DNA from: Krischvirus LF73P4
Reading direction: 5' to 3' (one strand)
Sequence record: OZ035795.1
DNA: 64,000 nt
Shown here: positions 5,386-54,917 of the stretch, piece by piece
How positions within the stretch are numbered: position 1 is the stretch's first letter
Layout of the letters: each line of letters starts with the position of its first letter
The notes under the pieces: generated by a model
The model's database searches: none
What the model saw: the letters and a program-made list of their open reading frames with translations, nothing else
Told to the model about the DNA's origin: nothing
Position numbers and translations under genes: made by a program

Positions 5386-6072
5386 ATGAAACTGACTAAA
5401 GAAACCATTGCTACCCTGAAAAACTTTTCCGCTATTAACCCAGGTATCATCCTGAAAAAAGGAAACGTCCTAATCACCAAAAACATGACAAACGTTGTAT
5501 ATGGTGAAGCGACTCTGAATCAAGAACTGGAACACGAAATCGGGATCTATGATCTTAACTCTTTCCTGGGCATTCTGAATCTGGTGGGCGATGAAGCAGA
5601 TATTACGGTTGATAACCGCACCGGAAACATTCGTGTGTCTAATGATCGTCTGAAAATTAATTATCCTGGTGCTAGTGCTGCTGCTATCGTATCACCGAAA
5701 GGCCGAGTTACTCCACCTGCAAGCGATGTAGATTACGAACTGAGCAACGACGATCTGAAACAGCTTATGAAAATGAGCAATCAGCTTAAAGTGGATCGCC
5801 TTGAATTTCTACCGATTGATGGTCGTCTGATGATCAAAGGCTGGGAAGAGATTGACAAAAATAATCCTAATGAGATGTTTTGTCTTGATATGGGCGAATA
5901 TACCGGAACCGCAGACTTCCATTTCTTTATTCGTAAAGATAACATGAAACTGGTTGCTACTGACTTCGGCGATTACAAACTGAGCTTCACTCGCCGTAAG
6001 GCTGTATGGCTGGCAAGTGAAACCGTATCTTATATGATCGCGTGTGACCTTGACTCCAGCTACACCGACTAA
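5386..6072 (+). CDS. 45: sliding clamp gp45
   Basis: 228 aa, same length and clear similarity to T4 gp45 as recalled; followed by clamp loader genes. Confidence 0.9.
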   Translation: MKLTKETIATLKNFSAINPGIILKKGNVLITKNMTNVVYGEATLNQELEHEIGIYDLNSFLGILNLVGDEADITVDNRTGNIRVSNDRLKINYPGASAAAIVSPKGRVTPPASDVDYELSNDDLKQLMKMSNQLKVDRLEFLPIDGRLMIKGWEEIDKNNPNEMFCLDMGEYTGTADFHFFIRKDNMKLVATDFGDYKLSFTRRKAVWLASETVSYMIACDLDSSYTD

Positions 6073-6084
6073 TATAATGTTTGT

Positions 6085-6104
6085 GGGGAGTGTAAATACT
6101 CCCC
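6085..6104 (+). terminator. stem-loop GGGGAGT-GTAAAT-ACTCCCC followed by GTTTT (possible terminator or processing site)
   Basis: Perfect 7-bp inverted repeat just after gp45 stop. Confidence 0.35.
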
Positions 6105-6137
6105 GTTTTAATGATGTAATTTGTGAGAGGTGATTAT

Positions 6138-7112
6138 ATGCTGAGTGTTAATGAAAATGAGTTTCAGTGGGAACAGAAATACCGTCCGAAATCAATTTCT
6201 GAATGTATTCTGCCGGAAGCAGATAAAAAGATCTTCGCGCAGATTGTTAAGCAAGGCCGAATCCCTTCTATGATCCTGCATAGCCCATCGCCGGGTACTG
6301 GTAAAACAACCGTTGCTAAGGCGCTTTGCGAAGATGTGGGTGTTGATTATCTGTTTGTTAACGGCGCAGATTGTAAGATTGATTTTATCCGCGATGAGAT
6401 TACACGCTTTGCGCAGAGTGTATCACTCGATGAAGAAAAACGAGAAAAAGGCAAAGTTGTTATTATCGATGAGTATGACCGAGCGGGGTTGGCTGACGCT
6501 CAAAGACACTTGCGTAGTTTCTCTGAGGCATACTCAAACAACGTGACATTCATTATCACAGCAAACGATCTAGAAGGTATTATCCCAGCGTTACGATCTC
6601 GATTTGATCCCATCACGTTTGGATCTCCGACTAAAGATGATCAGCTTCGCATGATGAAAGAAATGATCGTCCGGTGTAAAGCAATTCTTGATAAAGAAGG
6701 TGTGCCAGTAGAAGAAATGCGCGTATTAGCGGAACTGGTTAAACAGAACTTCCCAGACTTCCGACGCGTAATGAAACTTTTGGACCGCTACGCTAAACAT
6801 GGTAAAATTGATGCTGGCGTATTGAGCATGGTTATCGAAAGTAGCAATACCGAAGTAACCGATGTGGTGGAAGCACTTAAAACTAAACAGTTTGCTAATG
6901 TGCGTAAACTTGCACCGCGATATACCAATACATACGCTCAATTTGTCAAGAAACTTTATAATGAGTTGTATACTCAAGTTAAGCCAGCTTCTATTATTCG
7001 TCTGACCGAGATTATCGGTGAAAATAATCAGATGTTTGCGCACGCGGCTGATAAAGAGATTCACATTGTCTTTTTGTTAATGCAATTAATGGTTGAATTG
7101 GAGTTCGTATAA
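6138..7112 (+). CDS. 44: clamp loader large subunit gp44 (AAA+ ATPase)
   Basis: Walker A SPGTGKTT; GAGAGG RBS before ATG 6138; synteny 45-44-62. Confidence 0.9.
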   Translation: MLSVNENEFQWEQKYRPKSISECILPEADKKIFAQIVKQGRIPSMILHSPSPGTGKTTVAKALCEDVGVDYLFVNGADCKIDFIRDEITRFAQSVSLDEEKREKGKVVIIDEYDRAGLADAQRHLRSFSEAYSNNVTFIITANDLEGIIPALRSRFDPITFGSPTKDDQLRMMKEMIVRCKAILDKEGVPVEEMRVLAELVKQNFPDFRRVMKLLDRYAKHGKIDAGVLSMVIESSNTEVTDVVEALKTKQFANVRKLAPRYTNTYAQFVKKLYNELYTQVKPASIIRLTEIIGENNQMFAHAADKEIHIVFLLMQLMVELEFV

Positions 7113-8136: not shown

Positions 8137-10815
8137 ATGTATTTTCTGTCATGTGAGCGAGTGGGTGATAAGATCTACGAGCGTTATATTGATGATGCTG
8201 GACAAGAACAAGAGCGTTACGTTGAATATACGCCAACTTTATTTCATCATGCCGCGCCCGGTATGGTTACGAATTATAAAGATATCTATGGCAAGCCTTG
8301 CATTGCTAAAAAATTCCCATCTATGAACGAGGCCAACAAATGGCGTAAAAAGATGGGAGAAATGGGGCAGGAGGCACTAGGGATGGATGATTTTATCATC
8401 TCCTATCTGTCCGATACATATAAAGGCGAGATTCGATATGACCGAAATAAAATCCGTGTAGCCTGGGTTGATATTGAGGTCACTGCACCGGAATTTCCTA
8501 AACCAGAAGAAGCGAAATATCCTATCGATGCTATTACGCATTATGATTCCGTACATGATCGTTTCTTTGTATTTGATTTGAAAGGAAAAAACGGTGAAAT
8601 CTGGGAAGCAAGCAAGTCTATTCTTCGACCTGATATTGTAGAGCGCGTTGTTTATAACGTCTATGACACAGAAGATGAATTGCTGTTAGAATACATCCGA
8701 TTCTTTGAGGAAAACCGACCCGTTGGTTTCACTGGCTGGAACACAGAAACATTCGATATTCCATATATCATTAAACGTATCAGTAATAAGTTCGGAAGTA
8801 GAACCGCTAACCGTCTAAGCCCATGCGGTAAGATTAAATCCCGAATCTCGCAGGATGATTTTGGCAACGAGCGTGAAGCATTTACGATCATGGGGATCGA
8901 AAGCCTTGATTATATTGACCTGTACAAGAAATTTAGCTTTACGACTCAACCAACATATGCATTAGATTATGTTGCTGAATATGAGACCGGAATCGGTAAG
9001 GTTGATTATGATGGTCCGTTAAAGAAATTGCGTGATGACAACCATCAACTTTACATCGATTATAACATCGGCGACGTTGATCGTGTGCTGGCGATTGATA
9101 AAAAGCGTGGATTTATCGATCTTGTGTATAGTCTATGTTTCTATGCAAAGATTAAATTTAACCATGTTTATAACCCGATGAAAGTATGGGATGCTATTAT
9201 CTTCGGATCTCTGAAAGCAGAGGGTAAAGTAGTACCGGAAAATAAGATACAGCCTAAGCAGACTTATCCTGGCGCATTCGTAAAAGAACCTGTACCGAAT
9301 GCTTACCGTTGGATGATGAGCTTTGACTTAACAAGTCTGTACCCATCTATTATTCGACAGGTTAATATTTCTCCTGAAACAATCGCTGGATCTTTTGATG
9401 CTGCACCGATGCACGAGTATATCAATAAAACTGCACCACGTCCGAGTGATGAGTATTCTTGCTCGCCTAACGGATGGATGTATAGAAAAGATATTCACGG
9501 TATCGTACCGATTGAGATTAAAAAGGTATTCGATCAGCGTAAGCAGTACAAAAACATGATGTTGGCATGTGATCGCAATGCTGAACTCTGTAAAGCGATT
9601 CTACACGATGAAAATCATGTTTATGGGGGAACCATTAGCTATAGCGTTGAAGTGCGTCACGACTTCGATGAAGCGTTTAAATCGATGCTTTCTGAATTGA
9701 GCAAAGATGCCTTAGAGAAATTGCTGGAAGAATGTAAAGACGAGTCGATCTTGTGCAATACAAACCAGCTTTCTCGAAAAGTTTTGATCAACTCCCTTTA
9801 TGGTGCGTTGGGGAATCCTAAATTCCGTTTTTATGATCTCCGTAACGCTAGTGCGATCACACTGTTCGGTCAGCTTGCAATTCAGTGGATTGAGCGTAAG
9901 ATTAACGAATACTTAAACGAGCTTTGCGGAACGACTGATTTTGCATATGTTCGTTATTGTGATACTGACTCCGTTTATGTGCTGGTTAACAATGTTATTG
10001 ATAAGGTTGGCGGGGAAGACCGTTTCGACGATACCGAAAAACTTGTTGACTTCCTTGATAATTTCGGTAAACATCGAATGGAACCTATTATCGACAAGGG
10101 ATATCGCGAGTTATGCGAGTACATGAACAACTATGAGCACTTGATGTTTATGGACCGTGAGGCAATTGCTGGTCCTCCGTTGAAATCTGCGGGTATCGGT
10201 GGATTCTGGACTGGTAAAAAGCGTTATGCTCTTAATGTTTGGGATATGGAAGGAACGCGCTTTGCTGAACCTAAGCTAAAAATCATGGGCTTGGAAACGC
10301 AACGTAGCTCCACCCCTAAAGCATGTCAGAAATCACTGAAAGAATGTATTCGCCGTATGTTGCAGGAAGGTGAAGAGTCATTGCAGGAATACTACGGTAT
10401 TTTTGAGCAAGAATTTAGAAAACTTGACTATCTTGATGTTGCTGCGGTATCATCTGCAAACAACCTACAGAAATACAGCGATTCAAACGGGTATCCGATT
10501 AAGGGTTGTCCGTATGCGGTTAAGAGTGTATTGTGTTATAATCGTAATGCTCGAAAATTCGGACTAGACCCGATTCGTGAGGGTGAGAAGGTTATGATTG
10601 TACCGCTTAAAGACCGAAATCCGTTTGGAGAAATCTGTTTTGGTTGGTTGTCTGGTACTCGTATTCCACCAGAAATTGAATCAGAGGTGTTGAAGTGGTT
10701 GGACTGGCCTTTGTTGTTTAATAAGACTTTCGTCAAACCACTGGAGAACATTACCACGGCTGCAAAGCTGCAATATGAAAAAGTTGCTTCACTGACTGAC
10801 CTGTTTGACATTTAA
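8137..10815 (+). CDS. 43: DNA polymerase gp43 (family B, with 3'-5' exonuclease)
   Basis: 892 aa from ATG 8137 (AAGGAG upstream); motifs DIEV, SLYPS, YCDTDS; collinear with T4 gp43. Confidence 0.95.
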   Translation: MYFLSCERVGDKIYERYIDDAGQEQERYVEYTPTLFHHAAPGMVTNYKDIYGKPCIAKKFPSMNEANKWRKKMGEMGQEALGMDDFIISYLSDTYKGEIRYDRNKIRVAWVDIEVTAPEFPKPEEAKYPIDAITHYDSVHDRFFVFDLKGKNGEIWEASKSILRPDIVERVVYNVYDTEDELLLEYIRFFEENRPVGFTGWNTETFDIPYIIKRISNKFGSRTANRLSPCGKIKSRISQDDFGNEREAFTIMGIESLDYIDLYKKFSFTTQPTYALDYVAEYETGIGKVDYDGPLKKLRDDNHQLYIDYNIGDVDRVLAIDKKRGFIDLVYSLCFYAKIKFNHVYNPMKVWDAIIFGSLKAEGKVVPENKIQPKQTYPGAFVKEPVPNAYRWMMSFDLTSLYPSIIRQVNISPETIAGSFDAAPMHEYINKTAPRPSDEYSCSPNGWMYRKDIHGIVPIEIKKVFDQRKQYKNMMLACDRNAELCKAILHDENHVYGGTISYSVEVRHDFDEAFKSMLSELSKDALEKLLEECKDESILCNTNQLSRKVLINSLYGALGNPKFRFYDLRNASAITLFGQLAIQWIERKINEYLNELCGTTDFAYVRYCDTDSVYVLVNNVIDKVGGEDRFDDTEKLVDFLDNFGKHRMEPIIDKGYRELCEYMNNYEHLMFMDREAIAGPPLKSAGIGGFWTGKKRYALNVWDMEGTRFAEPKLKIMGLETQRSSTPKACQKSLKECIRRMLQEGEESLQEYYGIFEQEFRKLDYLDVAAVSSANNLQKYSDSNGYPIKGCPYAVKSVLCYNRNARKFGLDPIREGEKVMIVPLKDRNPFGEICFGWLSGTRIPPEIESEVLKWLDWPLLFNKTFVKPLENITTAAKLQYEKVASLTDLFDI

Positions 10816-15556: not shown

Positions 15557-16585
15557 ATGATTTACTACGCAGATTATGAAATAGCGGAAAAAGCCATATA
15601 CGGCGAACGAAATTTTAAACGGTTGCATACTAGCTCATTTACGCTGGTCTGTAGTTGTCCGATCTGCGGTGACTCAAAGAAAAATCATACTCAAGCGCGA
15701 TTCCGTATCTATACCTATAAGGATAGTTTGCGTTGTGGTTGTTTCAACTGTAACTACAATCAGCCGTTAGGTGAATTTCTCAAACAGTATAAACCGGACC
15801 TATTCAGGGAATGGCTTATGGAGAGACGGAAGGAACAAGGCGACCACAAGAACACCACGTTCAAGCCACTGAAAAAGGTAGAAAAGCCGGAGATTAAGAA
15901 AGTGCAAACATTGCCTTTCTGCGAGAGATTAGATACTCTTCCGGCTAATCATCCTATAATAAAGTATGTCAGTGATCGTTGCATCCCTCACGATAAATGG
16001 GATCTTCTGTATTTCACGAGAGAATGGCAAAAGGTAGCAAATCACATTAAGGCTGATACTTTCAAGAACCCACAACCTGAACCGCGTTTAGTGATTCCTA
16101 TCTTTAACCGCGAGAACAAGATAGAATCCATTCAGGGGCGAGCATTGAGAAAGGATTACGGAAAGACCAAATATATGACGATTAAAACTCATGAGTTAGC
16201 GAGTAAGGTCTATGGTCTTGAACGCGCCGATCCGAGTAAGCCAGTGTATTTCTTAGAAGGTCCGATCGATTCATTGTTTATTGATAACGGGTGTGCAATT
16301 ACTGGCGGTACTTTGGGATTAGATGAAATACCTTTCCCAGACCAGCGAGTGTTTGTACTTGATGCGGAACCACGGTCTGCCGATACAATGCACCGACTGG
16401 AAAAGTTTATCAATGCAGGGGAAAAGATTGTATTGTGGGACCGTTGCCCGTGGCATTCTAAAGACGTTAACGCCATGATTCAGGACGAGGGCGCTACACG
16501 CGACCAGATCATGGAATATATCAAAGAGAACACCGTACAAGGTCTGATGGCTAAAATGCGGTTTATGAAATATTGTAAATTTTAA
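15557..16585 (+). CDS. 61: DNA primase gp61
   Basis: 342 aa; zinc ribbon CPICGDS...CFNC; strong similarity to T4 gp61 as recalled. Confidence 0.9.
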   Translation: MIYYADYEIAEKAIYGERNFKRLHTSSFTLVCSCPICGDSKKNHTQARFRIYTYKDSLRCGCFNCNYNQPLGEFLKQYKPDLFREWLMERRKEQGDHKNTTFKPLKKVEKPEIKKVQTLPFCERLDTLPANHPIIKYVSDRCIPHDKWDLLYFTREWQKVANHIKADTFKNPQPEPRLVIPIFNRENKIESIQGRALRKDYGKTKYMTIKTHELASKVYGLERADPSKPVYFLEGPIDSLFIDNGCAITGGTLGLDEIPFPDQRVFVLDAEPRSADTMHRLEKFINAGEKIVLWDRCPWHSKDVNAMIQDEGATRDQIMEYIKENTVQGLMAKMRFMKYCKF

Positions 16586-16599
16586 TTAATGAGGTGAAT

Positions 16600-17118
16600 A
16601 TGTCAGAATTTAATTCTTGTGCTGGTCTGGTTAACGAAAAAGATATTAACGCGGCTATCGCCGCATATCATCACGCTATTGCAGAAGGTAAAGATCCGTT
16701 TCAGGTGATGCTCGAAATGCAAACTGGTTTGCAGGTTGCATTATCCGAAAAATTTGATTGGGTCCCAAATCCAACTAAGCTAGAGACTTGCGGTGAAATG
16801 CTGGATTGGATGCAACGGATGGATGACGCTATCGCAGACGAAACACGAGAGCTTTACACATCGCTGGGTGGAATGTCCAATGGTAAAGATGCAAGTGCAA
16901 TCTGGAAAATGTGGAAAAAGAACCACGGAGAAGCGCGAGCGCGTAAATTCTCTGAACTGTCACCGGAAGATCAGCTTGAAGTGAAATTTGAATTTGTGGA
17001 CGCGATCCACTTCATTCTGTCAAAGATGATCCCGCTGGGTATTGACGCTCAAGAACTCTTTATTCTGTACTATCTGAAAAATGCTGAAAACTTCGCCCGT
17101 CAAGAACGCGGCTACTAA
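16600..17118 (+). CDS. hypothetical protein; possible all-alpha NTP pyrophosphatase (MazG/gp56-like)
   Basis: 172 aa; acidic ExxE / ExxD helices; product call tentative. Confidence 0.35.
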   Translation: MSEFNSCAGLVNEKDINAAIAAYHHAIAEGKDPFQVMLEMQTGLQVALSEKFDWVPNPTKLETCGEMLDWMQRMDDAIADETRELYTSLGGMSNGKDASAIWKMWKKNHGEARARKFSELSPEDQLEVKFEFVDAIHFILSKMIPLGIDAQELFILYYLKNAENFARQERGY

Positions 17119-17125
17119 AAATTAG

Positions 17126-17154
17126 TTGACACTAATCTATAATGGTTTTATTAT
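17126..17154 (+). promoter_or_regulatory. promoter candidate TTGACA-17-TATTAT
   Basis: -35 at 17126-17131, -10 at 17149-17154; abuts terminator hairpin. Confidence 0.35.
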
Positions 17155-17184
17155 GCCTCCCGTCGAAAGATTGGAGGCTTTTTT
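17155..17184 (+). terminator. rho-independent terminator whose 3' arm contains the SD of the next gene
   Basis: GCCTCC (17155-17160) / GGAGGC (17173-17178) hairpin + TTTTTT; ATG at 17188. Confidence 0.55.
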
Positions 17185-17187
17185 ATT

Positions 17188-17691
17188 ATGCAATTTACAC
17201 CAGAAGAACTTAACATCATTGATGAAGTGATGAACTCTAAAGAAAATATCGATATGTCGATCCTTAATGGATTGATCGAAAAGACTGAGCGGTTAGTGCA
17301 TCATGAAGCCTTGTATCGCGGTGTGAGCAAAAGAGAAGGCCGTAAGCTGGATACCTTAATTGTAGGTGATTCTTTCGTTGTAGAGCGTCCTATGAGCTTT
17401 ACGCCACTGAAATCAACAGCAGAGGACTTTGCAACCGATGTTTATGCAACAGGAAAGATTATTGCAATAAAACCTACCAAGCCTTGCATGAATTATTACG
17501 AACATGCTATTGACCGAGTGGTGTCTAAAGAGTATGACAATCCGACTACTCGACTGTCTTTGTATGCTATGTTGGCAGATGAGCGCGAGTGCATATACAA
17601 GACAGGGACGACCATGATCCTTGATGAGATCGAGGAAGTTTACGCGTGTAATGGCGAGCTGATAGAGATTTACAAATTTTCTTTAATTTAA
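17188..17691 (+). CDS. hypothetical protein (possible Mod-like ADP-ribosyltransferase)
   Basis: 167 aa; YRG, ST and ERE elements in the order of R-S-E ADP-ribosyltransferases; weak. Confidence 0.5.
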   Translation: MQFTPEELNIIDEVMNSKENIDMSILNGLIEKTERLVHHEALYRGVSKREGRKLDTLIVGDSFVVERPMSFTPLKSTAEDFATDVYATGKIIAIKPTKPCMNYYEHAIDRVVSKEYDNPTTRLSLYAMLADERECIYKTGTTMILDEIEEVYACNGELIEIYKFSLI

Positions 17692-17694
17692 GTG

Positions 17695-17723
17695 TTGACA
17701 GCACAAACCAGATAGACAATAAT
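17695..17723 (+). promoter_or_regulatory. promoter candidate TTGACA-17-AATAAT
   Basis: -35 at 17695-17700. Confidence 0.35.
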
Positions 17724-17752
17724 ACACACATACCAACTAAGGAGAATCAATT

Positions 17753-18508
17753 ATGAAACTGTTTGCTTTTAAATCTAACGAAGAATTGGCGCTGGTTGTT
17801 TTCCGGCTGAACTCTATCATGGCTGGTGCTTCACGTCGCAACAAAGACTTCTCTATGAGCTTAGTCACTGTGCGTAACATTTACCGACAGACTCATTGCG
17901 CCTATTCCGGTGAGGCTTTCGGTGAAGGTGATGATGGACTCTCCTTAGAGCGCATTGATTGCAATCTAGGATATGTTGATGGCAATGTAATTCCGGTTAA
18001 ACTGAAATACAATTCTTTCCGTGGCAATCACACTATCGAATCTCTTAAAGAGATCCAGGAACTAGGAACTAACGGTAAACTTTCTGATGATGAAATTGCC
18101 CTACGTGCGAAGTACATCGAGTGGATCGAACTTAACGAGAATCGCATCAAAAATCAGGAACTGGCAATCGAAGAAAAGAAATTAGCAATCGAGCGCCACA
18201 AAAAGCACAACGAACCTGAGAAAGCAGAGGCAGTCGAGCGAGCTATTAAAAATACTCTCTTCCGTATGGAAGAACGTTATCAGAAAATTGCAGATCTCAA
18301 GCAAGCCCTTAGCGAAATCAACAAGAAAGAAGAAAAACTTAAGGCTATTGCAAACAATACCGAAGTCGTGCTAAAATATACCAGCGTTTTGATTGAATCT
18401 CTTTCTAAGTATGAGAACTTAACGCCAGCACAAAAAGAACGCGTGAAATACGGGCTTCCGATTGATGCGTCGTGGATTGAATTGATGAAAGCGAAGGTAG
18501 GTTTATAA
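17753..18508 (+). CDS. hypothetical protein with coiled-coil C-terminal half
   Basis: 251 aa; AAGGAG upstream. Confidence 0.55.
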   Translation: MKLFAFKSNEELALVVFRLNSIMAGASRRNKDFSMSLVTVRNIYRQTHCAYSGEAFGEGDDGLSLERIDCNLGYVDGNVIPVKLKYNSFRGNHTIESLKEIQELGTNGKLSDDEIALRAKYIEWIELNENRIKNQELAIEEKKLAIERHKKHNEPEKAEAVERAIKNTLFRMEERYQKIADLKQALSEINKKEEKLKAIANNTEVVLKYTSVLIESLSKYENLTPAQKERVKYGLPIDASWIELMKAKVGL

Positions 18509-42296: not shown

Positions 42297-42465
42297 GAAT
42301 GTTAACAAAATATCGCTTCGCGACGTGCCGTAGGCACTGACTACTTTTTAACCGAAACAAATTTTCTATTATTCTAAAGATCTTTCTTCGTTTTGGTTAT
42401 GTTTTAACCAATAACTATATTTTTATACAGTAATAAATAAAACGGGTACTATACGAGGACTTCTT

Positions 42466-42720
42466 ATGACAGAAGACATTTTGTTAAAACTCTATGATCG
42501 TCTGGATAACGAATTAGCAACATTGCGGGGTGAAGTTCTCTATTTGTCTAAATGCAATACAGATCTGCTTAAGCAGATTGCAGAAAGGGATGATCAAATA
42601 AAATCCCTTTCAGGTGCATTACGTGATCGCGACAAGGCATTAGAGATTTTACAGCGTGTTACCAATAAGGAAGAATTAAAAGACTTCTTACATGGTTATG
42701 CTCATGCCATCGATCTATAA
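42466..42720 (+). CDS. hypothetical coiled-coil protein
   Basis: 84 aa; GAGGA 6 nt upstream of ATG. Confidence 0.45.
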   Translation: MTEDILLKLYDRLDNELATLRGEVLYLSKCNTDLLKQIAERDDQIKSLSGALRDRDKALEILQRVTNKEELKDFLHGYAHAIDL

Positions 42721-42746
42721 TAAAAAAGCCCGTCAATGACGGGCTT
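42721..42746 (-). terminator. rho-independent terminator ending the gene 4 - gene 2 transcript
   Basis: AAGCCCGTC-aat-GACGGGCTT hairpin; on - strand followed by TTTTTTA. Confidence 0.6.
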
Positions 42747-42750
42747 AATG

Positions 42751-43572
42751 TTATGCATCCTTCCAAACTTTCCTTGCGTCGTATTTCTTGCCTTTTGACA
42801 TAAACTGATATGTAGGCATATAGATAATATTGCTCCAGTCTTTCGGGCTAATCTCAACAAGTTTTGTTTTAATGTGTCCCGGTAGATATGCTTTGATCAT
42901 GTGATCACTTCCACGCATACCTTTTACATCGCTCCATTTGATTTTTAAGCGTGTTTTATTGCTCAAGGTAGGAGTAGATGCATATTGCTTTAAAAGTGCC
43001 TCTAAAAACTGCTGACGGGCTTTAGGCGTTACATAGTGTAAGTTAAGACCCAGCATTACAGTATTACCCGCCTTTGTCTTAGAATCACCCAGACAAATGA
43101 TCAGCGGGAAAACATCCCAATATGGTAAAGTGTCTTTATACTTCGCATCATACATAAAGGTATAGATTCGCCCTACTTGCGGTTTTACAATCTGGTGTCC
43201 CTTTATTCCCGCTTTTATTGTTTTAGTAAACCACTCCTGTGATTTTTCTTTAGGACGACTCTTTGATACAGCACGCATAGACGCACGAAAATCATTAATC
43301 ATCATCATTGCGCGTTGCTGCTTATTGAGACCCTTTGCACCTTTCCCTTTTAGTTTTTCAACTTCTATTGCTGTTTTAATTTCGCTGGCATAACGAGACA
43401 TACTTTTAGTGAAAGTCGCATAGGCTATTCCCTTAGAATCTGCAAATGCTTTAGCTGTCATGCCTTTGGCTTTTGCTTTCGCAAATTCTACACCCAATTC
43501 GACCCACTGTTTAGACTTTCTTTTTTGGGGAGACGGCTTTTCGTCTTCTGTGATTATTTCAAATACGCTCAT
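42751..43572 (-). CDS. 2: DNA end protector protein gp2
   Basis: 273 aa, basic; size and position next to gene 4 as in T4. Confidence 0.65.
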   Translation of the reverse strand: MSVFEIITEDEKPSPQKRKSKQWVELGVEFAKAKAKGMTAKAFADSKGIAYATFTKSMSRYASEIKTAIEVEKLKGKGAKGLNKQQRAMMMINDFRASMRAVSKSRPKEKSQEWFTKTIKAGIKGHQIVKPQVGRIYTFMYDAKYKDTLPYWDVFPLIICLGDSKTKAGNTVMLGLNLHYVTPKARQQFLEALLKQYASTPTLSNKTRLKIKWSDVKGMRGSDHMIKAYLPGHIKTKLVEISPKDWSNIIYMPTYQFMSKGKKYDARKVWKDA

Positions 43573-43583
43573 AATATTATCCT

Positions 43584-44057
43584 CTATTTGTTAAGCCCTT
43601 TAAAGCCAAACACTTTCTTTAATGCATGTTCGGTGATGATCTTAAACTCCATGTTATGCTTTTGGCATAATTTCACGGCAGCTAACCATTTTTCAGTATT
43701 TTTTGTGTATGTCCATACTTCATGCATATATCGTTGCTTTGTCTTCGCGGTCATTCTTTTTGGCTTTTCCGGTGGCCTTGTCTCTTTAGCTGGTTTAACT
43801 TCCCATAAATGCTCCTTGCCATCATCAAACTTAACGTAAAAATCCATAAAGTATCTGTGTCTTTTTCCGTCTGTTGATGACTCATAAGGAATTACTACGG
43901 TCTCAGATCCCCATTTTGCAACTCTAGGATTGCGGTCTAGCCACTGCATGATCCATCTTTCCCAGCTTGAACGGTATGTGATCTTACGTATATCCCCTTT
44001 ATACTTTTCCTTATTCTCAGGAACATACTTGCCCTTATAAGTGTTAGATCCTCCCAT
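43584..44057 (-). CDS. 4: head completion protein gp4
   Basis: 157 aa; divergent from gene 53 as in T4. Confidence 0.65.
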   Translation of the reverse strand: MGGSNTYKGKYVPENKEKYKGDIRKITYRSSWERWIMQWLDRNPRVAKWGSETVVIPYESSTDGKRHRYFMDFYVKFDDGKEHLWEVKPAKETRPPEKPKRMTAKTKQRYMHEVWTYTKNTEKWLAAVKLCQKHNMEFKIITEHALKKVFGFKGLNK

Positions 44058-44072
44058 TTTAGCACCCTTTAT

Positions 44073-44080
44073 TATAAATA
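44073..44080 (+). promoter_or_regulatory. T4-type late promoter box TATAAATA for gene 53 operon
   Basis: Exact TATAAATA, 32 nt upstream of ATG 44113. Confidence 0.6.
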
Positions 44081-44088
44081 CATAATAC

Positions 44089-44096
44089 TATTTATC
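44089..44096 (-). promoter_or_regulatory. possible late promoter variant GATAAATA for gene 4
   Basis: 7/8 match on - strand, 31 nt upstream of gp4 ATG. Confidence 0.3.
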
Positions 44097-44112
44097 AATT
44101 GAGGGTGCTAAA

Positions 44113-44667
44113 ATGCTCTTTTCTTTCTTCCCTGCCATTGAATACAATGGCAAGATGATTACTGACATTGTGCGCAATTACCGCGCATATTTCAACGCAA
44201 TAATTTCTGATTATAACATACAAACATATTACATTCAAGGTAGTCCACGACCGGAACAAGTTGCATATGAAGTATACGGAAACCAGCAACTTTATTGGAT
44301 CTTGCTGATGCTTAATGACGTATACGATCCGTTTCATGACTGGATCACTGATCAAGAGACAGCATATGAATCAGCCGAACAGCGATATGCAAATGTAGGA
44401 GGAAATCAAGTATTATACCACGTTGATATTGACGGAAACAAGTATTGGAATCTTACCGAATATCCGAAAGGATCAAGCAATTGGTATGATAAAGGGGATA
44501 TTCATCACCGTTATTTGCAGTTTCAGGGTGCATTATCGGCAGTAGACACACTGGAAGATGCGATCCTCCGTAATGAGGAACGACGCAAGATCAAGATCAT
44601 AGATCCTACACAAATTAAACAATTTATTAACGCATTCATTCGAGAAATGGAAAAGGCTGATGTGTAA
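44113..44667 (+). CDS. 53: baseplate wedge protein gp53
   Basis: 184 aa; first gene of late operon, upstream of gp5. Confidence 0.7.
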   Translation: MLFSFFPAIEYNGKMITDIVRNYRAYFNAIISDYNIQTYYIQGSPRPEQVAYEVYGNQQLYWILLMLNDVYDPFHDWITDQETAYESAEQRYANVGGNQVLYHVDIDGNKYWNLTEYPKGSSNWYDKGDIHHRYLQFQGALSAVDTLEDAILRNEERRKIKIIDPTQIKQFINAFIREMEKADV

Positions 44668-44678
44668 GGTGATTAATT

Positions 44679-46478
44679 ATGCTAATGTTTAATAACTCCG
44701 TTAAATGGTTTACCGGAATTGTAGAAAACAGGGAAGATCCATTAATGTTAGGCCGAGTTCAGGTTAGGATTCATGGTATACATCCCTCGCTATCCGCACA
44801 CGGTGACATTCAAGGTCTTCCAACCGAAGATCTACTATGGATTACGCCAGTACAAGATATTACAAGCGCGGCGATCTCCGGTATAGGTCAAAGCCCTACT
44901 GGTATTGTTGAAGGTTCAATGGTATTTGGTTTGGCTTTAGATGAACGTTATTTAAACTGCGTTATTCTTGGTACTATTGCCGGACAATATACAGAGAAAC
45001 CACTCACTACAGAAGGTTTTTGCGACCCTTCTGGTGCATATCCTCGTTATATTGGTAATGATGTTAATATTCTTGCTCGTGGCGGTATTAACCCAGAAAC
45101 CGGGCAAACAACAAAACCTGATAGTGTCTATATTCGAGATGAAAACACTGGAGTTGCAGTAAATCCAGACGACGAGCCATTAGATCAAATTCCGGTTGAT
45201 GATAATCCTGATTTTACAATAGAAAAAATGCTGCGTGGCGATGAGGGGTATCGCGAGAAATGGTATCTTGATTCAGAAGGATATCCGACAATAGGCATCG
45301 GGCATCTGATCATTTATAAGAAAACCAGTGATCTTGGTATTATCAATAATGAACTTTCTAAGCTGGTAGGGCGTGAAGTTACAAACGGAAGACTTACTGC
45401 CGAAGAAGTTAGTAAAGTATTTGCTGACGATATAGAAAAGACTCGTCGTGATATGCGCAAACATCCACGAATTGCACCTGTCTATAATAAATGTAATGCC
45501 TCACGTCGTATGGCATTAGAAAATATGGCGTTTCAAATGGGTGTTGGTGGATTGGGTAAATTTAAGAATAGTCTTGCTGCGATGTTAGCGGAAGAATGGA
45601 AACAAGCCTATGATGGATTACGTCAATCTGTATGGGCTAACCAAACTCCAGGACGATCCAGCCGTGTTTCTAAAATTATTTTAACTGGTAACTTAGAATC
45701 ATATGGCGTAATTGCTCCAAAGAAAGAGGAATCAATTTCGGATGATCCGCGAGCACGTTTAAGAAATGCCCGTATTGCTGCCTATAAGACGCAGAGAGCA
45801 GAAGAAGACCCAGAAGCACCGTTTACCCCACAAGACACACGAATCATGTTTAAAGAGCCTAAGAGTTCGTATTCTGCAAGGTATCCTTATAACCATGTGT
45901 ACGAGTCAGAGAGCGGTCATATTATCGAGATTGATGATACTCCTTCTCATGAGCGATATCATCGTAAACATCCTTCTGGTACATTTGAAGAAACCAGACC
46001 GGACGGAACGAGGGTAGAAAAGATTGAAGGTGATGACTATTTGATCGTTAAGCAAGGCCGCAAAGTCAACGTTAAAGGCAATCTGCAAGTTGTTGTTGAA
46101 GGTGACGCGCAAGTTTATTATATGGGTAATGTAATGCAAACCGTTGATGGTAACGTCACGGAATTTATTCGTGGCAATGTTAATCAGACCGTTGAGGGTA
46201 CAGCTAATATGCATGTTGTAGGTGATGTTACCGCACAGCTTGACGCTAATTTGACGGCTAACGTCAAGGGTAATGCTGAATTAATGATCGAGGGTAACAC
46301 TACCGAAACAATTAAAGGTAACTATGATTTAACCGTTGAGGGTAATTTTAATATGACCGTCAATGGCACTAAATCAGATCAGGTTAATGGTGACTGGTCC
46401 CGTAATTGTGGTGCAAGCGTTAAAGATATTGCATCTGGTACAGTTAAAATTGATGGTAGCCGTATTGATCTTGGGTGA
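44679..46478 (+). CDS. 5: baseplate hub / tail lysozyme gp5
   Basis: 599 aa; lysozyme motif EGYPTIGIGHL; C-terminal VxGxxxxT beta-helix repeats. Confidence 0.9.
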   Translation: MLMFNNSVKWFTGIVENREDPLMLGRVQVRIHGIHPSLSAHGDIQGLPTEDLLWITPVQDITSAAISGIGQSPTGIVEGSMVFGLALDERYLNCVILGTIAGQYTEKPLTTEGFCDPSGAYPRYIGNDVNILARGGINPETGQTTKPDSVYIRDENTGVAVNPDDEPLDQIPVDDNPDFTIEKMLRGDEGYREKWYLDSEGYPTIGIGHLIIYKKTSDLGIINNELSKLVGREVTNGRLTAEEVSKVFADDIEKTRRDMRKHPRIAPVYNKCNASRRMALENMAFQMGVGGLGKFKNSLAAMLAEEWKQAYDGLRQSVWANQTPGRSSRVSKIILTGNLESYGVIAPKKEESISDDPRARLRNARIAAYKTQRAEEDPEAPFTPQDTRIMFKEPKSSYSARYPYNHVYESESGHIIEIDDTPSHERYHRKHPSGTFEETRPDGTRVEKIEGDDYLIVKQGRKVNVKGNLQVVVEGDAQVYYMGNVMQTVDGNVTEFIRGNVNQTVEGTANMHVVGDVTAQLDANLTANVKGNAELMIEGNTTETIKGNYDLTVEGNFNMTVNGTKSDQVNGDWSRNCGASVKDIASGTVKIDGSRIDLG

Positions 46479-46486
46479 GGTAACTA

Positions 46487-47053
46487 ATGGTTGAAATTCT
46501 TCCGATGAGTTCAAAATTGGAGGATATCAGCGAGCGAGAAATCTTTGAGGTGGTGTTCTCTTATAAAGCAACGCCACCGGATGCAAATACCACATACACG
46601 ATTAAAGAGTTTAAGATCAGCGAGTATCGCCCTAATAAGGGCGTTACCGTTGAAGAAACTAAAATATCTGGTGAGTATCGGGATAGTTTTTCGCTTGGCG
46701 CGGATTCTCTTAAATATATAACGAAAGATAGAATTAAAAAATCTGCCGGAAGTTTTGATGATTTACCAGATCCAACTACCGCAGATCTATATTATTTTAA
46801 CGCTCCTACACGTCTACAGGAGGTTTATACTTATAAAGTAACCCTAACCTATATCCAATCTGTTTCAGAGTCTTCTGGTGGTTCTGATGAAGGAAATAGT
46901 GGTGGTTCCAATAGCCGAGAGGGTGCTGGTGAAACTAATCCGCCTCCGGTAGTAACCGAGCACACAATAGAGAAAGTTTATACTCAAACCGTTTTTGGAA
47001 ATTGGGATGTGTGGGCGCAGCAACTAAGAGATTATGTACATAGGGGTGTTTAA
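46487..47053 (+). CDS. hypothetical protein (position of T4 5.1)
   Basis: 188-aa ORF between gp5 and PAAR protein. Confidence 0.5.
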
Positions 47054-47346
47054 TGGCTGGATTATCCTACGATAAAGCTAAAACTACAGGGCACGGAAAC
47101 TACCCACCTACGGTAATTAATGCAACTCAATCTAAGGTATTTGTTGAGGGTATCCCTGTATTAGTCGAAGGAGACCCAATTACACCACATACAAAAACAA
47201 CAAAGCCTTATGATACACACGGGGGAACTACGGTCGCCAGTACCCCGAAAGTATTTGTTACCGGAAAGAAAGCAATTCAAATGGCAGATCGTATTAGCTG
47301 TGGCGATACCGTCGCTATGGCATCACCGAAGGTATTCATAAAATGA
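47053..47346 (+). CDS. 5.4: PAAR-type spike tip protein gp5.4
   Basis: 97 aa, same size and position as T4 gp5.4. Confidence 0.7.
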
Positions 47347-49247
47347 CAAAGCAAAAGATTACACAAATTCCTGATATTTTTAATGCTGCTACGTTTGATG
47401 AAATTAAAAGCGCATTAACAGACTGGATGAGAAACCAGGAAGAATTTAAAGATTTTGATTTTAATGGTGCTGGCATTAACGTATTGATGGACTTGCTCGC
47501 ATATAACACTCTGTATATTCAGCAATTCGCTAACGCCGCGCTATATGAATCTTTTATCAGAACGGCAATTAAGCGTAGTTCAGTTGTTCAAGCCGCGCAA
47601 GATTTAGGATATTTGCCAGCAAGTAAAACTAGTGCATCGACCACAATTATGTTGCACGTATCACATCCGCGAAATCCGGCAAGTATTCGAATCCCACGAG
47701 GAACTAAATTTATTGCAAGTGTGGATCGCCAGACTTCTTACCCATTTGTTACTACAGAGGACGTCGTAAGCGTTTTAGGTTCAAATGGTTTATATACGCC
47801 TATGCTTAAAGTCGCACAAGGTCGTATTGTTCGTACAGAAATGTTATTTGATCCGAAGAAACAAATTCTGATCCGTGATCCTGATATTGACCGCGCTCAG
47901 GTTAAGTTGTGGGTAGATGGTGCTGAATGGAAAGACTGGACGCGAGAAAGTATTGTTAATGCAACTGGCGCTAGTAATATTTTCTATATGCGTGAAACCG
48001 TAGACGGACATACTGAAATTTTCTTTGGTGAGGGTGAATCAACTTTATCTGCCGCTGGCGGTGCACTGGAAGCAAATTATATTGGTGGACTTAAGCCGTC
48101 AACTGGTGCTAATATTGTTATCGAATATATCAGCACTAAAGGCGCGGAAGCAAACGGTTCAGTTAATTTCACATACGCGGATACATTGGCATCAATTTCT
48201 ATTGTTAAAATTATTGAGAATCCGACAAATGATCGTGATTATGTCGGTGCAGATGGTGGTGGTGATCCTGAATCAATCGAACGTATCCGTGAACTTGCTC
48301 CGGTAATGCGTGAATCTCAGCGTCGTTGTGTGACTGCTTCCGACTATGAGGCTTTTGTGTCTAGCCGTTTTGGTAGTATTGTTCAGGCGGTACAATGTTT
48401 CACCGACCGAGAAAAACCGGGTTATGCTTTTGTTGCTGTTAAGCCTAAATCTGGCTTGCGCTTGACAACCGTTCAAAAAGAAGATATGCGGGATTATCTG
48501 GCAAAATATAACCTTGCCCCTATCACGCCGAGCATCATTGACCCTAACTATCTGTATATTAAACAGAATATTAAAGTTTCCTATTCAATCAACGACTTGT
48601 CAGAATCAGAGCAGTGGTTGCGCGGTGCGGTTATTGATCAGATTGATGCATATTATACCGACGAAGTGGAAATTTTTAACCAGACATTTAGTAAGTCTAA
48701 AATGCTTGCTCGTATTGACAAAGCTGATGTATCTGTGATAGGTTCTAGTGCAGAAATCGAGATGGTGCGAGAGATCGACAACTTCTATAAAGCACCGATG
48801 GCGGGAATCAAGTTTTTAAACCAGTATAAGAGCGGAATCAAGTCTAGTTCATTCAACTTCGAAAAGGACGACAAGCAATATCCGATCCATTATGTAAGTA
48901 CAGAAATGAACAAAGAATCCGGTTTAGCTAAATTGCTGGTTGGACCTTTCCCTGTTGATTCTACAATCGCTTTACCGCACTATTCCGGCACTGATTTTGA
49001 TAAAGAGATTATCGACGGTGCGGACCTATACTTTGAGGTTGGAGAGGTTCAGCATTATGAAGACCTTATTTCATGGGATCTGGGTAAACTGAATATCAAT
49101 AGCGATCGCTTTACTGGTTCATATATTGAGTTGACAGCTAAACCGATTGCTGATAACATTTTTACTAAAGACGGTTCTTTGATCGTGTTTGAAAACGATC
49201 TCCGTCCTCAGTACACAACTATTAGTCTGGAGGCAATTGCTCAATGA
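47343..49247 (+). CDS. 6: baseplate wedge protein gp6
   Basis: 634 aa; size and order match T4. Confidence 0.8.
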
Positions 49248-52200
49248 TTAAAGCGCCTAGTGTAACTAGCTTGACAATAGAAAAATTGTCTGCTAATCAG
49301 GCGTATATCACATGGGATGACGTAGGCGAAAACTTCTTTTATTTTGTGGAGTTAGCCGAAACCAGAACACGAGACGGGGAGATCATCCCCGTCGATGAGT
49401 TAAGCTGGGTAAACCTGGGATATACTGCCGACCAAAACTGGTTTGAGGATAAAAACCTTTTTCCAGAATATTATTACAAGTTTCGTGTAGCAGTAGCCGC
49501 AGAAGGATTTGAACAAAGTAAATGGGTTGAAACAGAAGAGTTTCAGACATTTAAAACAAACGCATATAATTTTTCTATGATGCGAGAGTTCAACCTTGCA
49601 AACGAGTTTATAAAGGAAAAATTTACATACGATAATCGAGAGTATGTCAAGTTTAATACTGACCTGATTCAAGCATCATTAATGAAGGAAGATTTTGTCT
49701 TTAGTCCTGAATATGCAAACATGACAAATATCTCAAACTACATTGTAGTGGATGAGAACTTTCATGAAATACAGGATCACATAGAAAAAGTTTGTACTGA
49801 TATAAACCGCACTATGTTAGCGGAAATGAACGGTGTTTTGTACCTTTTCGAACGGTTCCAGCCGATCGTGAAAGTGTCAAATGATAAAGGCCAATCATGG
49901 AAAGCATACAAGGCTTTTAATGACCGTGTAGGGAATCCGGTTTCCCGTACATGCGTTTATCAGTCTAAAACCACTACTTACGTTTTAGGATATGACCGAA
50001 TCTTTTACGGACGACAAGCGAGCGATACTCGATGGAGCGCGGACGATGTTCGATTTAGTGATGATACGATCACTTTTGCAAAGGTCGGTGACGAAAACGA
50101 TTTAGGCTTTGACGTTGAGGTCTTTGGTGTATTTTCCAGATTAACAGGTGATACCACAAAATACGCCGAAGCTATGGCGTGTAGTGATGACTATTTGTGG
50201 GTTGGTGCTAAAGATGTTATTCGCAGGATTCGTCTTAAGAATACTCCTGTTGATACCGTACAGGGTTCGCCTACGTTTGGAGAAAAAATATTCGATCCTG
50301 ATGTTATCCGAGTAACAGGAAATGATAAAGCTGTCATTCAGAAAATGGATGTGATCGACGGTAAATTGCTTGTATTTGTTACGGGTGAAGTTAAACAGCG
50401 TTATCAAGATCCAACTAAACCAGAAAACGTTGTTCCGTCAGATGATGCGGGTGTATACTTAATAGGGAGTGATGGTCTGTCTTTTCAGAGAGTATTTGGC
50501 AACACTCCGCAGGAAAGGGAATATATTCAGCATGGGTTCAGTAATATGTCAACCAATGGTGATGAGGTGTTCATAAGCCATTATAATCATCACTTCGAAA
50601 GCATTTTACCTGATCCAGAAACTGCCGAGAAATATGAATTGGGCGAAGCTGTAAAATATTCTCAGGAGCCAACTTATCTAACTGATAAGAAAATACATCA
50701 AACTACTTTCAGAGCAAGTTATGATGATTTGCGTATTTGGGAGTTAGGACCGCAAGCGTATTATAACGAGGCTGATTATACATGGATGCGTCGAAACGGT
50801 GTCCGTGTGTGGATCACAAATGATAATCGCCCGTTGGTTGTTTATCCAGAAGTTGTCTATACGCAGGAAGTTGATACTTCCGGCATTCTTGATAAAAACA
50901 GAATTAACCGTGAAGTTTATGATAAAGGGACCGTGACCTGTTATCTTAACAATGTTAAATTTGAAGGATTCAAACAATATGCATCCGGTGTAATGTTCCA
51001 TAAAAACACGGGAGAGATCATAGGATTCTATCAATTTAACTATCGCGTTCGTGATCAGGTTGGTGTATATTGGAAACCTACAAATGTAGCATTTGTTGCT
51101 GAATTGCAAAATCAGGTTCGAGAGGTTCCCTGGGTTCCGGTTCACTACGATCGAGAACAAGACCCAGATTTGCGACCTTTACTGAATAAGATGACACCGG
51201 ATAGCTTTTTACTTGAGAACGAAAATTTCAGAAAATTCTCTGAATATTATCTGCAATTCTTAAGTGATGGTTCTGGAACATATTATAATAAACTAAAAAA
51301 TCTGATTAAAAACAAATATCCACGCGAGCAAGATGCATATGAGTATCTTTGGTCAGAGATGAACAAACGAAACATCTATGCAGATAAAAACAAGCGAGAT
51401 GCGGTCGTAAGATTCTTTGAATCCCGCAAATCAGATTTTTATTCCACTAAGGGCGTGGAGGCTTCTTATAAGTTCTTGTTTAAGTTACTTTATAATGAAG
51501 ATGTGGAAATTGAGGTTGAATCACAAGCCGGACTAGAGTATGATATTGTTGTTAGTTCAACGAACATTGACGAGGATATCGTAGGTCGCACGATTTATAC
51601 CCCGACCGGACGGGCTAACGTGACTTATCTTGAAAGGGAATATGAAGGTGGACGTCTACGCTGGCGAGTAACCATTCATAACCTGATCGGGCGGTTCGAA
51701 GAAGGTCAAGTGATCAAATCAGAGAAAACAGCGTTTGAAGGGATGATCCTTGTTGGTGTACGTGGTAAAGAGTTGCTGAGTAGTTCAATCGACTATATCA
51801 ACCGATCACGAAGCCAATACACCATGAAGATTAAAAGTGCATTGCCAGTTTCGCGCTATGCAAATGATGTAATGCGATTCGTTCATCCTGTCGGCTTTGG
51901 GTTTATCGGTGTTACCCTGCTTACGATGTTCATTAACAGCGGGTTGAGCATGAAGCACACCGAGACTATAATTCAATCTCTGAAAAATTATAAGTTTGAC
52001 AGCGGATTGCCTAGCGTGTATCCTGATCGGGTGGCAGACCTTGATGTTGATGGAAATATTAAGATTGACCCACTAACAGGGAAACCATTATACTTAACGT
52101 CACCGACAATTGGCGAAGAGTTCCCTGTTCCTCCTGAATATGATCAGGAGAACAGCGAATTGTTCCACGGACTTAAAGCAAGCGAACGAAGATTTGCAAT

Positions 52201-52330
52201 GAGTCCACTGTTTGACCAGTCGGCGGTAACATTCTCTATGTTCCGTGAACTTGTAGATAAAAGGTTGAAGGATAATATAGGGAATCCACGCGATCCGAAG
52301 AATCCGACACAGAGGAAAATTAATGGCTAA
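49244..52330 (+). CDS. 7: baseplate wedge initiator gp7
   Basis: 1028 aa; size and order match T4. Confidence 0.8.
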   Translation: MIKAPSVTSLTIEKLSANQAYITWDDVGENFFYFVELAETRTRDGEIIPVDELSWVNLGYTADQNWFEDKNLFPEYYYKFRVAVAAEGFEQSKWVETEEFQTFKTNAYNFSMMREFNLANEFIKEKFTYDNREYVKFNTDLIQASLMKEDFVFSPEYANMTNISNYIVVDENFHEIQDHIEKVCTDINRTMLAEMNGVLYLFERFQPIVKVSNDKGQSWKAYKAFNDRVGNPVSRTCVYQSKTTTYVLGYDRIFYGRQASDTRWSADDVRFSDDTITFAKVGDENDLGFDVEVFGVFSRLTGDTTKYAEAMACSDDYLWVGAKDVIRRIRLKNTPVDTVQGSPTFGEKIFDPDVIRVTGNDKAVIQKMDVIDGKLLVFVTGEVKQRYQDPTKPENVVPSDDAGVYLIGSDGLSFQRVFGNTPQEREYIQHGFSNMSTNGDEVFISHYNHHFESILPDPETAEKYELGEAVKYSQEPTYLTDKKIHQTTFRASYDDLRIWELGPQAYYNEADYTWMRRNGVRVWITNDNRPLVVYPEVVYTQEVDTSGILDKNRINREVYDKGTVTCYLNNVKFEGFKQYASGVMFHKNTGEIIGFYQFNYRVRDQVGVYWKPTNVAFVAELQNQVREVPWVPVHYDREQDPDLRPLLNKMTPDSFLLENENFRKFSEYYLQFLSDGSGTYYNKLKNLIKNKYPREQDAYEYLWSEMNKRNIYADKNKRDAVVRFFESRKSDFYSTKGVEASYKFLFKLLYNEDVEIEVESQAGLEYDIVVSSTNIDEDIVGRTIYTPTGRANVTYLEREYEGGRLRWRVTIHNLIGRFEEGQVIKSEKTAFEGMILVGVRGKELLSSSIDYINRSRSQYTMKIKSALPVSRYANDVMRFVHPVGFGFIGVTLLTMFINSGLSMKHTETIIQSLKNYKFDSGLPSVYPDRVADLDVDGNIKIDPLTGKPLYLTSPTIGEEFPVPPEYDQENSELFHGLKASERRFAMSPLFDQSAVTFSMFRELVDKRLKDNIGNPRDPKNPTQRKING

Positions 52331-53318: not shown

Positions 53319-53331
53319 GTGTATGATTTTA

Positions 53332-53366
53332 AAAGCCAATTCGAGAGAGTTGGCTTTTTCCATTTT
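53332..53366 (+). terminator. rho-independent terminator after gene 8
   Basis: AAAGCCAA / TTGGCTTT hairpin followed by TTTTT. Confidence 0.55.
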
Positions 53367-53371
53367 TGGTG

Positions 53372-53399
53372 TTGACAATATTATTTGGTAAGGTATAAT
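53372..53399 (+). promoter_or_regulatory. near-consensus sigma70-type promoter TTGACA-16-TATAAT
   Basis: -35 at 53372-53377, -10 at 53394-53399, 30 nt upstream of ATG 53429. Confidence 0.55.
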
Positions 53400-53428
53400 G
53401 CTCACATCTAAACAACGGAGGATAAATT

Positions 53429-54842: not shown

Positions 54843-54846
54843 TTAT

Positions 54847-54872
54847 AAGCCGTCCTCCTGGGCGGCTTTTTT
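54847..54872 (+). terminator. rho-independent terminator after methyltransferase
   Basis: AAGCCG...CGGCTT hairpin followed by TTTTTT. Confidence 0.6.
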
Positions 54873-54882
54873 GTATGTATTT

Positions 54883-54890
54883 TATAAATA
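54883..54890 (+). promoter_or_regulatory. T4-type late promoter box TATAAATA for gene 9
   Basis: Exact TATAAATA, 27 nt upstream of ATG 54918. Confidence 0.6.
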
Positions 54891-54917
54891 ATACATCATA
54901 ACATGAGGAATTAAACA

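Follow-up and report, generated by a model that had tools for sequence, protein, structure and literature searches.

We report that, in Krischvirus LF73P4, the gene for a ModB-like ADP-ribosyltransferase is preceded by a compact cassette in which a sigma-70 promoter abuts an RNA hairpin, and the 3' arm of that hairpin holds the only Shine-Dalgarno (SD) sequence of the gene. The cassette lies in a stretch of 64,000 nucleotides (nt) (record OZ035795.1), referred to below as the window; positions are counted from its first letter, and the features of the cassette and of its neighboring genes are on the + strand. On the basis of the sequence, we consider it probable that this one hairpin does three jobs, i.e., that it ends upstream transcription, presents no block to RNA made from the gene's own promoter, and locks the SD on read-through RNA. 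Specifically, the hairpin and the U6 tract behind it would terminate the upstream early operon, which ends in the genes for the primase gp61 and the dCTPase gp56. The strong promoter abutting the hairpin would start RNA at about 17161-17162, without the GCCUCC arm, so that no terminator would form and the GGAGG SD would be free. RNA that escapes termination would carry both arms, and the sole SD of modB would be locked in a helix of -15 kcal/mol. Synthesis of ModB would thus depend on its own immediate-early promoter and be shielded from read-through; the likely purpose is a short burst, early in infection, of an enzyme that in its T4 form is lethal upon over-expression (PMC3014915). The anatomy, the thermodynamics, the conservation and the recurrence across genera were computed; from these we infer the transcript start, the efficiency of termination, and the size and purpose of the translational block.

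The sequence from 17119 to 17190 can be written in segments as AAATTAG-TTGACA-(17 nt)-TATTAT-GCCTCC-C-GTC-GAAA-GAT-T-GGAGGC-TTTTTT-ATT-ATG. The hairpin spans 17155-17178. Its 5' arm, GCCTCC (17155-17160), is both the discriminator of the promoter and the anti-SD arm; it is present only on RNA started upstream, and is invariant in all relatives examined. The 3' arm, GGAGGC (17173-17178), contains GGAGG (17173-17177), the SD of the open reading frame (ORF) that begins at 17188, and the record of Ec_Makalu_002 likewise places a ribosome-binding site (RBS) inside the terminator. A T6 tract (17179-17184) completes the structure. An earlier note on this DNA had described the same two arms, separated by 12 nt and followed by TTTTTT, and all of its coordinates proved exact. 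The 12-nt 'loop' is itself folded, with G17162-U17163-C17164 paired to G17169-A17170-U17171 around GAAA; that is, the hairpin top (17162-17171) is an inner 3-bp GUC/GAU stem closed by a tetraloop. The complete hairpin therefore has nine base pairs, namely six outer (five G-C and one U-A) and three inner, with one C/U mismatch. Its free energy is -15.0 kcal/mol; the fold accounts for 95% of the ensemble (z = -4.7), and none of 200 shuffled sequences was as stable. The SD is fully paired in this hairpin and the AUG is unpaired. GGAGG occupies positions -15 to -11 and ends 10 nt ahead of ATG 17188, and no nearer purine-rich SD-like motif is found between the two, so that GGAGG is, as had been claimed, the only SD for this ORF. 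ATG 17188 is the first start codon past an in-frame stop, making a longer ORF impossible.

That the hairpin is the terminator of the upstream gene had also been proposed, and this prediction is independently on record. For RB49, Nolan et al. (2006) give a terminator predicted by TransTerm at 9430-9453(-), 'modB<--56', with confidence 100 and a 10-bp stem, and this element maps exactly to 17155-17178 of the window. A terminator at this site is already annotated in four records as well, i.e., those of three Makalu phages and of TB34. The site has the makings of an intrinsic terminator, with a GC-rich hairpin followed by U6, 37 nt past the gp56 stop codon. A simple terminator scan returned no match at the hairpin because that scan takes only perfect stems with loops of 3-8 nt. 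A search of 16900-17500 against the covariance models of Rfam 15 gave no match, with only two sub-threshold chance hits elsewhere in the region. Natural variants of the cassette leave the stem intact. In metagenomic contig L005/L058 (IMG/VR 3300045988_033703) the -10 box is TATTGT instead of TATTAT; L003 has T5 in place of T6; and L006 has T7, as well as a change of U17172 to C at the mismatch position. No stem pair is affected by the variants in L005, L003 and L006. Scanning IMG/VR with the promoter core gave 97 matches, of which the relevant ones come from the same three Krischvirus contigs only.

The promoter put forward in the earlier note, TTGACA (17126-17131) and TATTAT (17149-17154) with a 17-nt spacer, stands up to closer inspection. 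It matches the consensus at 11 of 12 positions, which is the joint-best promoter match within 14-21 kb, its two hexamers are annotated in the GEC-3S record as minus_35_signal and minus_10_signal, and it is conserved in all 58 Krischvirus records, the -35 hexamer being kept even in JSE and G37-3, where other DNA has taken the place of the sequence upstream of it. Directly 5' of TTGACA is CTAC-TAA-AAATTAG, which includes an A/T-rich UP-like stretch, TAAAAATTAG (17116-17125), that begins with the gp56 stop codon TAA (17116-17118). The sigma-70 holoenzyme usually starts transcription 7-8 nt past the -10 box, which here predicts a start at 17161-17162. The early-promoter consensus of RB49, a predicted consensus reported to be consistent with 5'-end mapping, favors C from -3 to -1; the CCC (17159-17161) before G17162 matches that preference. 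Because the 5' arm consists of the six discriminator bases, and the usual start falls at C17161/G17162, RNA from the own promoter is predicted to lack the 5' arm.

The prediction would be different if transcription started upstream of 17155, for example via the TATAAT at 17138-17143. In that case the gene's own RNA would form the terminator, i.e., the leader would be self-attenuating, and antitermination would be needed for expression. This TATAAT is a perfect hexamer, conserved in most relatives; a start at 17150 would retain full occlusion as well as the terminator; and another cassette of the window, at 6050, does have a hairpin and T-run from its predicted +1. Nevertheless, TATAAT was rejected as a -10 box, as it lies only 6 nt from TTGACA, has no usable -35 hexamer and no TG extension, and was lost in JSE, where TTGACA-17-TATTAT was kept. 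In addition, the 5' arm stops at the predicted start in all T4-type mod leaders described below. We thus regard a self-attenuating leader as extremely improbable. As for other sources of read-through RNA, no late promoter TATAAATA is found near the modB locus; the window holds three only, at 42289, 44073 and 54883, and late promoters were excluded as a source on these grounds.

The energetics of SD opening bear on the next part of the three-job reading, namely that upstream-initiated RNA carries an occluded SD and locally initiated RNA a free one. In the computed ensemble, the cost of unpairing GGAGG in the read-through context is 10.7-11.7 kcal/mol. For RNAs beginning at 17150 or 17156 the cost is 12.3 and 8.9 kcal/mol, respectively, and it falls to 3.4-3.5 kcal/mol for starts at 17160-17163, the interval in which the promoter is predicted to initiate. 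The promoter-dependent occlusion proposed in the earlier note is therefore supported in silico, in both of its halves, and the comparison with nine other genera agrees with it.

These costs were set against the genome background with two metrics. With the SD-only metric (span up to 45 nt), applied to the 61 genes of the window whose SD has 4 nt or more, modB has the real SD that costs most to open (12.1 kcal/mol, versus a median of 1.4). Its cost is also above that of every one of 77 genes from a second stretch, 50 kb of RB49 overlapping the window by about 13.7 kb, in which the maximum is 7.1 and the positive control, gene 49, a known T4 case, scores 6.5. The second metric assesses the whole translation initiation region (TIR), i.e., the SD plus the start codon, with a span of up to 75 nt. 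The genes ranked above modB on this metric include rI and the divergent pair of gene 4 and gene 53, which follow the classic T4 design in that a late TATAAATA promoter lies within the hairpin; of the top-ranked genes, modB alone has an early sigma-70 promoter in that place.

The strongest evidence for selection over chance is, in our assessment of the sequences, the recurrence of the design across genera. The 167-residue protein encoded downstream of the hairpin is about 30% identical to T4-type ModA/ModB proteins (tblastn), and in an alignment with them the R, S and ExE columns are invariant. We compared the leaders of the first mod gene in nine genera of T4-like phages, represented by T4, RB69, Melville, dhabil, phiE142 (where a modB remnant is found), KP185, F48, Kosakonia 305 and Serratia X20. 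All nine have an early promoter of the GTTTAC/TATGAT type together with a hairpin of -15 to -23 kcal/mol (z -3 to -7) ahead of that gene. In these T4-type hairpins the -10 hexamer and the discriminator are contained in the 5' arm, which ends 5 to 10 nt past the -10 box, at the predicted start; the 3' arm covers the SD and the AUG, with KP185 the weakest on the SD. The same design was found in each of 11 further distinct mod leaders from IMG/VR, with TIR costs of 13.8-19.6 kcal/mol, bringing the total to about 20 leaders. Where a second mod gene has its own promoter (the modA-like gene of dhabil, and phiE142), no occlusion is seen.

The gene stands out within the T4 genome as well. A census of the first 45 kb (MT984581.1), using the annotated starts of 74 genes, gives T4 modB the highest TIR-opening cost of all, 18.1 kcal/mol, as compared with 8.5 for soc, a textbook case of a sequestered TIR, and a median of 3.5. 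We take the early promoter of T4 modB to be Pe12.8, from our reading of T4 map coordinates. The second-highest cost in the same census is that of motB.2 (~8147), at 14.0 kcal/mol; its hairpin includes a TACTAT hexamer resembling a -10 box, and it may be another case of sequestration with an embedded early promoter.

The mod leaders share several features with the Krischvirus cassette: they precede an orthologous or paralogous gene, an early promoter is set into the 5' arm, discriminator and SD are paired with each other, and the predicted start coincides with the end of that arm. They differ from it in that their hairpins have 14-21 bp, include the -10 hexamer and the AUG, lack a U-tract, and are therefore non-terminators; their sequence is unrelated. 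The arms covary: positions +1 and +2 of the discriminator are each found with three types of Watson-Crick pair, in a pairing register that varies by genus. Alignment of the nine T4-type leaders with MAFFT and RNAalifold yielded a weak consensus, of -1.95 kcal/mol, in which 4 of 13 pairs show double changes. This weakness results from indels that shift the register, and the comparison across genera was made with per-sequence folds placed in a common coordinate frame. In nine of ten mod leaders the sense RNA is more stable than the antisense, by 1.6-13.9 kcal/mol, owing to G.U pairs, which points to selection at the level of RNA rather than to a DNA palindrome.

The Krischvirus cassette can also be placed in a known class. 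Promoter-early stem-loop (PeSL) cassettes have been described in RB49 and phi1 (Arbiol et al. 2010, PMC2839356; Comeau et al. 2014, PMC4122927). In these cassettes, A/T-rich sequence containing the upstream stop codon is combined with a consensus sigma-70 promoter and a stable stem-loop, with an SD and ATG at the 3' end; the stem-loop can occupy five positions relative to the promoter, one of which is downstream of the -10 box; and the promoters are very strong, and toxic upon cloning (PMC2839356). One PeSL stem-loop, other than that of modB, equalled rrnB T1 in reporter termination (PMC2839356). PeSLs are further reported to be recombination sites that mediate modular shuffling. Termination or attenuation, and modular shuffling, are the only roles their authors proposed, and the PeSL papers mention neither translation, nor sequestration, nor read-through. 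Judged by every sequence-level feature of the class, the modB cassette is a PeSL, and it belongs to the subclass whose stem-loop follows the -10 box. It shares the layout, the phage group and the recombination joints of the others. The window contains about 15 PeSL-like cassettes with varied stem-loop positions, three of which (at 1259, 23964 and 32381) have the upstream motif AAAAATTAGTTGAC in common with the modB cassette. What distinguishes the latter from the other 14 or so is that only here is the 3' arm of the stem the SD. In one of the other cassettes, at 6050-6140, the start of a hairpin (GGGGAGTG...CTCCCC) followed by GTTTT coincides exactly with the predicted +1; RNA from this cassette would bear the whole terminator-like hairpin at its 5' end, which could serve in self-attenuation or as a stabilizing 5' hairpin.

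The joints expected of a shuffling module are evident at this site. In contig L006 the cassette is an island of 92-96% identity, flanked by 44-78% on the gp56 side and 56-76% in modB; the encoded ModB is 74% identical, and high identity resumes at the next promoter, that of srd. In JSE (L217, 1-829) and G37-3 (L218, 1-844) a homing-endonuclease (HNH) gene is inserted between gp56 and modB, on the opposite strand. The joint of the insertion is at or inside the modB promoter, and the sequence of the -35/-10 spacer differs in JSE; the core, TTGACA-17-TATTAT-hairpin-SD-ATG, is intact. One could thus suppose that the inverted repeat acts at the level of DNA, either as an operator over the promoter or as a recombination hotspot for the shuffling of PeSLs, with the RNA hairpin secondary. 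The reported recombination at PeSLs, the identity island bounding the divergent modB module of L006, and the position of the insertion joints of JSE and G37-3, at the promoter or within it, are in keeping with this idea. However, the observed joints are upstream of the hairpin, in the region of the -35 box and spacer; the greater stability of the sense RNA in nine of ten mod leaders is unexpected for a DNA palindrome; the arm sequences vary between genera, where an operator would be expected to be conserved; and a T6 tract has meaning for RNA only. A primary function in DNA is for these reasons very improbable.

Several results weigh against the proposal that the hairpin terminates, spares its own transcript and locks the SD. 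If termination is efficient, read-through RNA would be rare, and occlusion of the SD would have little added effect. RNA from the own promoter retains a computed SD-opening cost of 3.5 kcal/mol, and the 10-nt spacing between SD and AUG is long. On the whole-TIR metric modB ranks only about 11th of 160, at 11.8 kcal/mol versus a median of 4.3. No covariation is available for the Krischvirus stem, as the 58 GenBank records are at least 95.8% identical and the stem is invariant among them. The SD is inside the stem in just one of the roughly 15 cassettes of the window, which could make it a local accident of compaction. Finally, of 71 GCCTCC...GGAGGC-T5 terminators in IMG/VR, 18 have an ORF start 3-14 nt past GGAGG, in unrelated phages.

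Much of this would follow if the element were an ordinary PeSL promoter-terminator cassette in which occlusion of the SD is incidental, termination alone provides the insulation, and control of translation is negligible. The 69-nt intergenic gap needed a GC-rich stem, and CCUCC/GGAGG supplies one by reusing the SD; similar terminators precede ORF starts elsewhere, as the IMG/VR count indicates; the stem-loops of PeSLs occur in five positions, with only a terminator or attenuator role proposed for them; and both the single instance among the window cassettes and the rank of modB on the wide-span metric fit an accident. Against this stand the nine other genera, in which the SD and AUG of the mod gene are buried in a covarying, non-terminator hairpin with the promoter in its 5' arm. 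Moreover, T4 modB ranks first of 74, and compaction is hard to credit when the same gene is extreme in two genomes with unrelated leaders. We consider incidental occlusion a serious but unlikely explanation, and favor the reading in which one hairpin terminates upstream transcription, spares local transcripts and locks the SD on read-through RNA.

A broader proposition, which we advance tentatively and would not yet call probable, is that the mod genes of Straboviridae carry a conserved, promoter-coupled translational insulator, in which an early sigma-70 promoter lies in the 5' arm of a hairpin over the SD and usually over the AUG, such that the enzyme is made from their own immediate-early transcripts only, and never from delayed-early read-through. 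Under this proposition evolution would repeatedly have remade the structure from different sequences and in different registers; Krischvirus would have lost the lower stem and gained a U-tract, to give a combined terminator and occluder; and RegB may remove the sole translatable mRNA, so that the enzyme would be made for a very short time only. ModA and ModB count as early proteins. RB49 encodes RegB (RB49p094, L205 25057-25479), an endoribonuclease that cuts GGAG in early SDs. It is possible that the GGAGG of modB would be exposed to RegB on own-promoter RNA and protected by the hairpin on read-through RNA, adding a layer of control.

If these readings are correct, the T4 design of a promoter within an RBS hairpin serves beyond the delaying of late genes, in that early promoters with the same design would keep a potentially lethal enzyme of host takeover from being made beyond the first minutes of infection. 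One PeSL would gain a third function, translational insulation, in addition to termination and re-initiation. The 64-nt cassette would also be a compact natural part for synthetic biology, combining terminator, promoter and RBS lock. The question thereby posed, namely why ModB must not come from read-through transcripts, can be put to the test directly in T4, where genetics is easy.

The wider locus is typical of RB49-type coliphages (genus Krischvirus), with which the window shares 99.2-99.5% identity. The gene order is primase gp61, dCTPase gp56, the cassette, the 167-residue ModB-like ADP-ribosyltransferase, a second early promoter, srd, dda.1 and dda. The gp56 dCTPase/dUTPase gene (16594-17118), the last of the upstream operon, matches Pfam dUTPase_2 and is labelled dCTPase/gp56 in RB49, GEC-3S and others. 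The ModB-like gene (17188-17691) is labelled modB or ADP-ribosylase in relatives. The next early promoter, TTGACA-17-AATAAT (17695-17723), serves srd; it has no hairpin and bounds the modB module downstream. Collinearity with the RB49 record is broken in the window: 42302-56037 corresponds to RB49 62.8-76.5 kb in forward orientation, and 16500-17800 to RB49 8808-10108 in reverse. At about 42300-42411 a tail-fibre region adjoins the gene 3/2/4 side; none of the phage records runs through this junction without a break, and the two matching pieces overlap by about 110 nt. A rearrangement, an inversion mediated by repeats or an assembly joint could each account for it.

Other promoter-in-hairpin candidates were encountered in the course of the analysis. 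Between the divergent genes 4 (-) and 53 (+), at 44055-44115, lies a near-perfect palindrome of about 60 nt (-26.6 kcal/mol, z -8.8 on either strand) that buries both SDs and both start codons and has the late promoter TATAAATA within it, at 44073-44080; it is a two-way, late-promoter form of the promoter-in-hairpin design. In the 50-kb stretch of RB49 (L205), rI (22191) has a strong hairpin with a TIR cost of 22.8 and TATAAATA in the 5' arm, and the TIRs of gene 49 (13108) and of the endolysin gene (28609) are sequestered. The T4 design thus appears to be conserved in Krischvirus for rI, gene 49 and endolysin. Two unrelated IMG/VR contigs, L110 (-, ~9559) and L197 (-, ~3172), have a -10 hexamer abutting GCCTCC, followed by GGAGGC, a T-run and ATG, ahead of ORFs of 535 and 348 residues, respectively. 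The three-part design may have arisen independently in these contigs.

The mechanism proposed here for modB has well-known precedents. For the T4 genes e (lysozyme), soc, 49 and I-TevI, the RBS is sequestered in long transcripts and is free in RNA from a promoter inside the hairpin, with a reported effect of about 100-fold for gene e (PMC3014915). The list of inhibitory TIR structures in that source, a 2010 review, omits modB; the T4 modB leader may have been described elsewhere, and the use of a promoter in a hairpin at mod genes across T4-like phages appears to be undescribed. As in the four T4 genes, upstream-initiated modB RNA is predicted to fold over the translation start signals, here the SD, and own-promoter RNA to lack the 5' arm. 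Unlike in those genes, where late gp55 promoters delay translation, the promoter within the modB hairpin is of the early sigma-70 type and would restrict translation to the earliest transcripts. The Krischvirus hairpin differs also in being a predicted intrinsic terminator, and in pairing the SD while leaving the AUG free. The mobE hairpin of Aeromonas phage Aeh1 (Gibb and Edgell, cited in PMC3014915) is similar in that it sequesters the RBS of a potentially harmful, operon-embedded gene, but it involves a late promoter, a homing-endonuclease gene and another context. The modB cassette is, therefore, a known type of cassette with a known mechanism, whose promoter and terminator had already been annotated or predicted. 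What would set it apart from these systems, as far as can be judged from sequence, is the use of an early promoter, the putative dual role of the hairpin as terminator and occluder, and a previously unlisted, broadly conserved counterpart at the mod genes of other T4-like phages.

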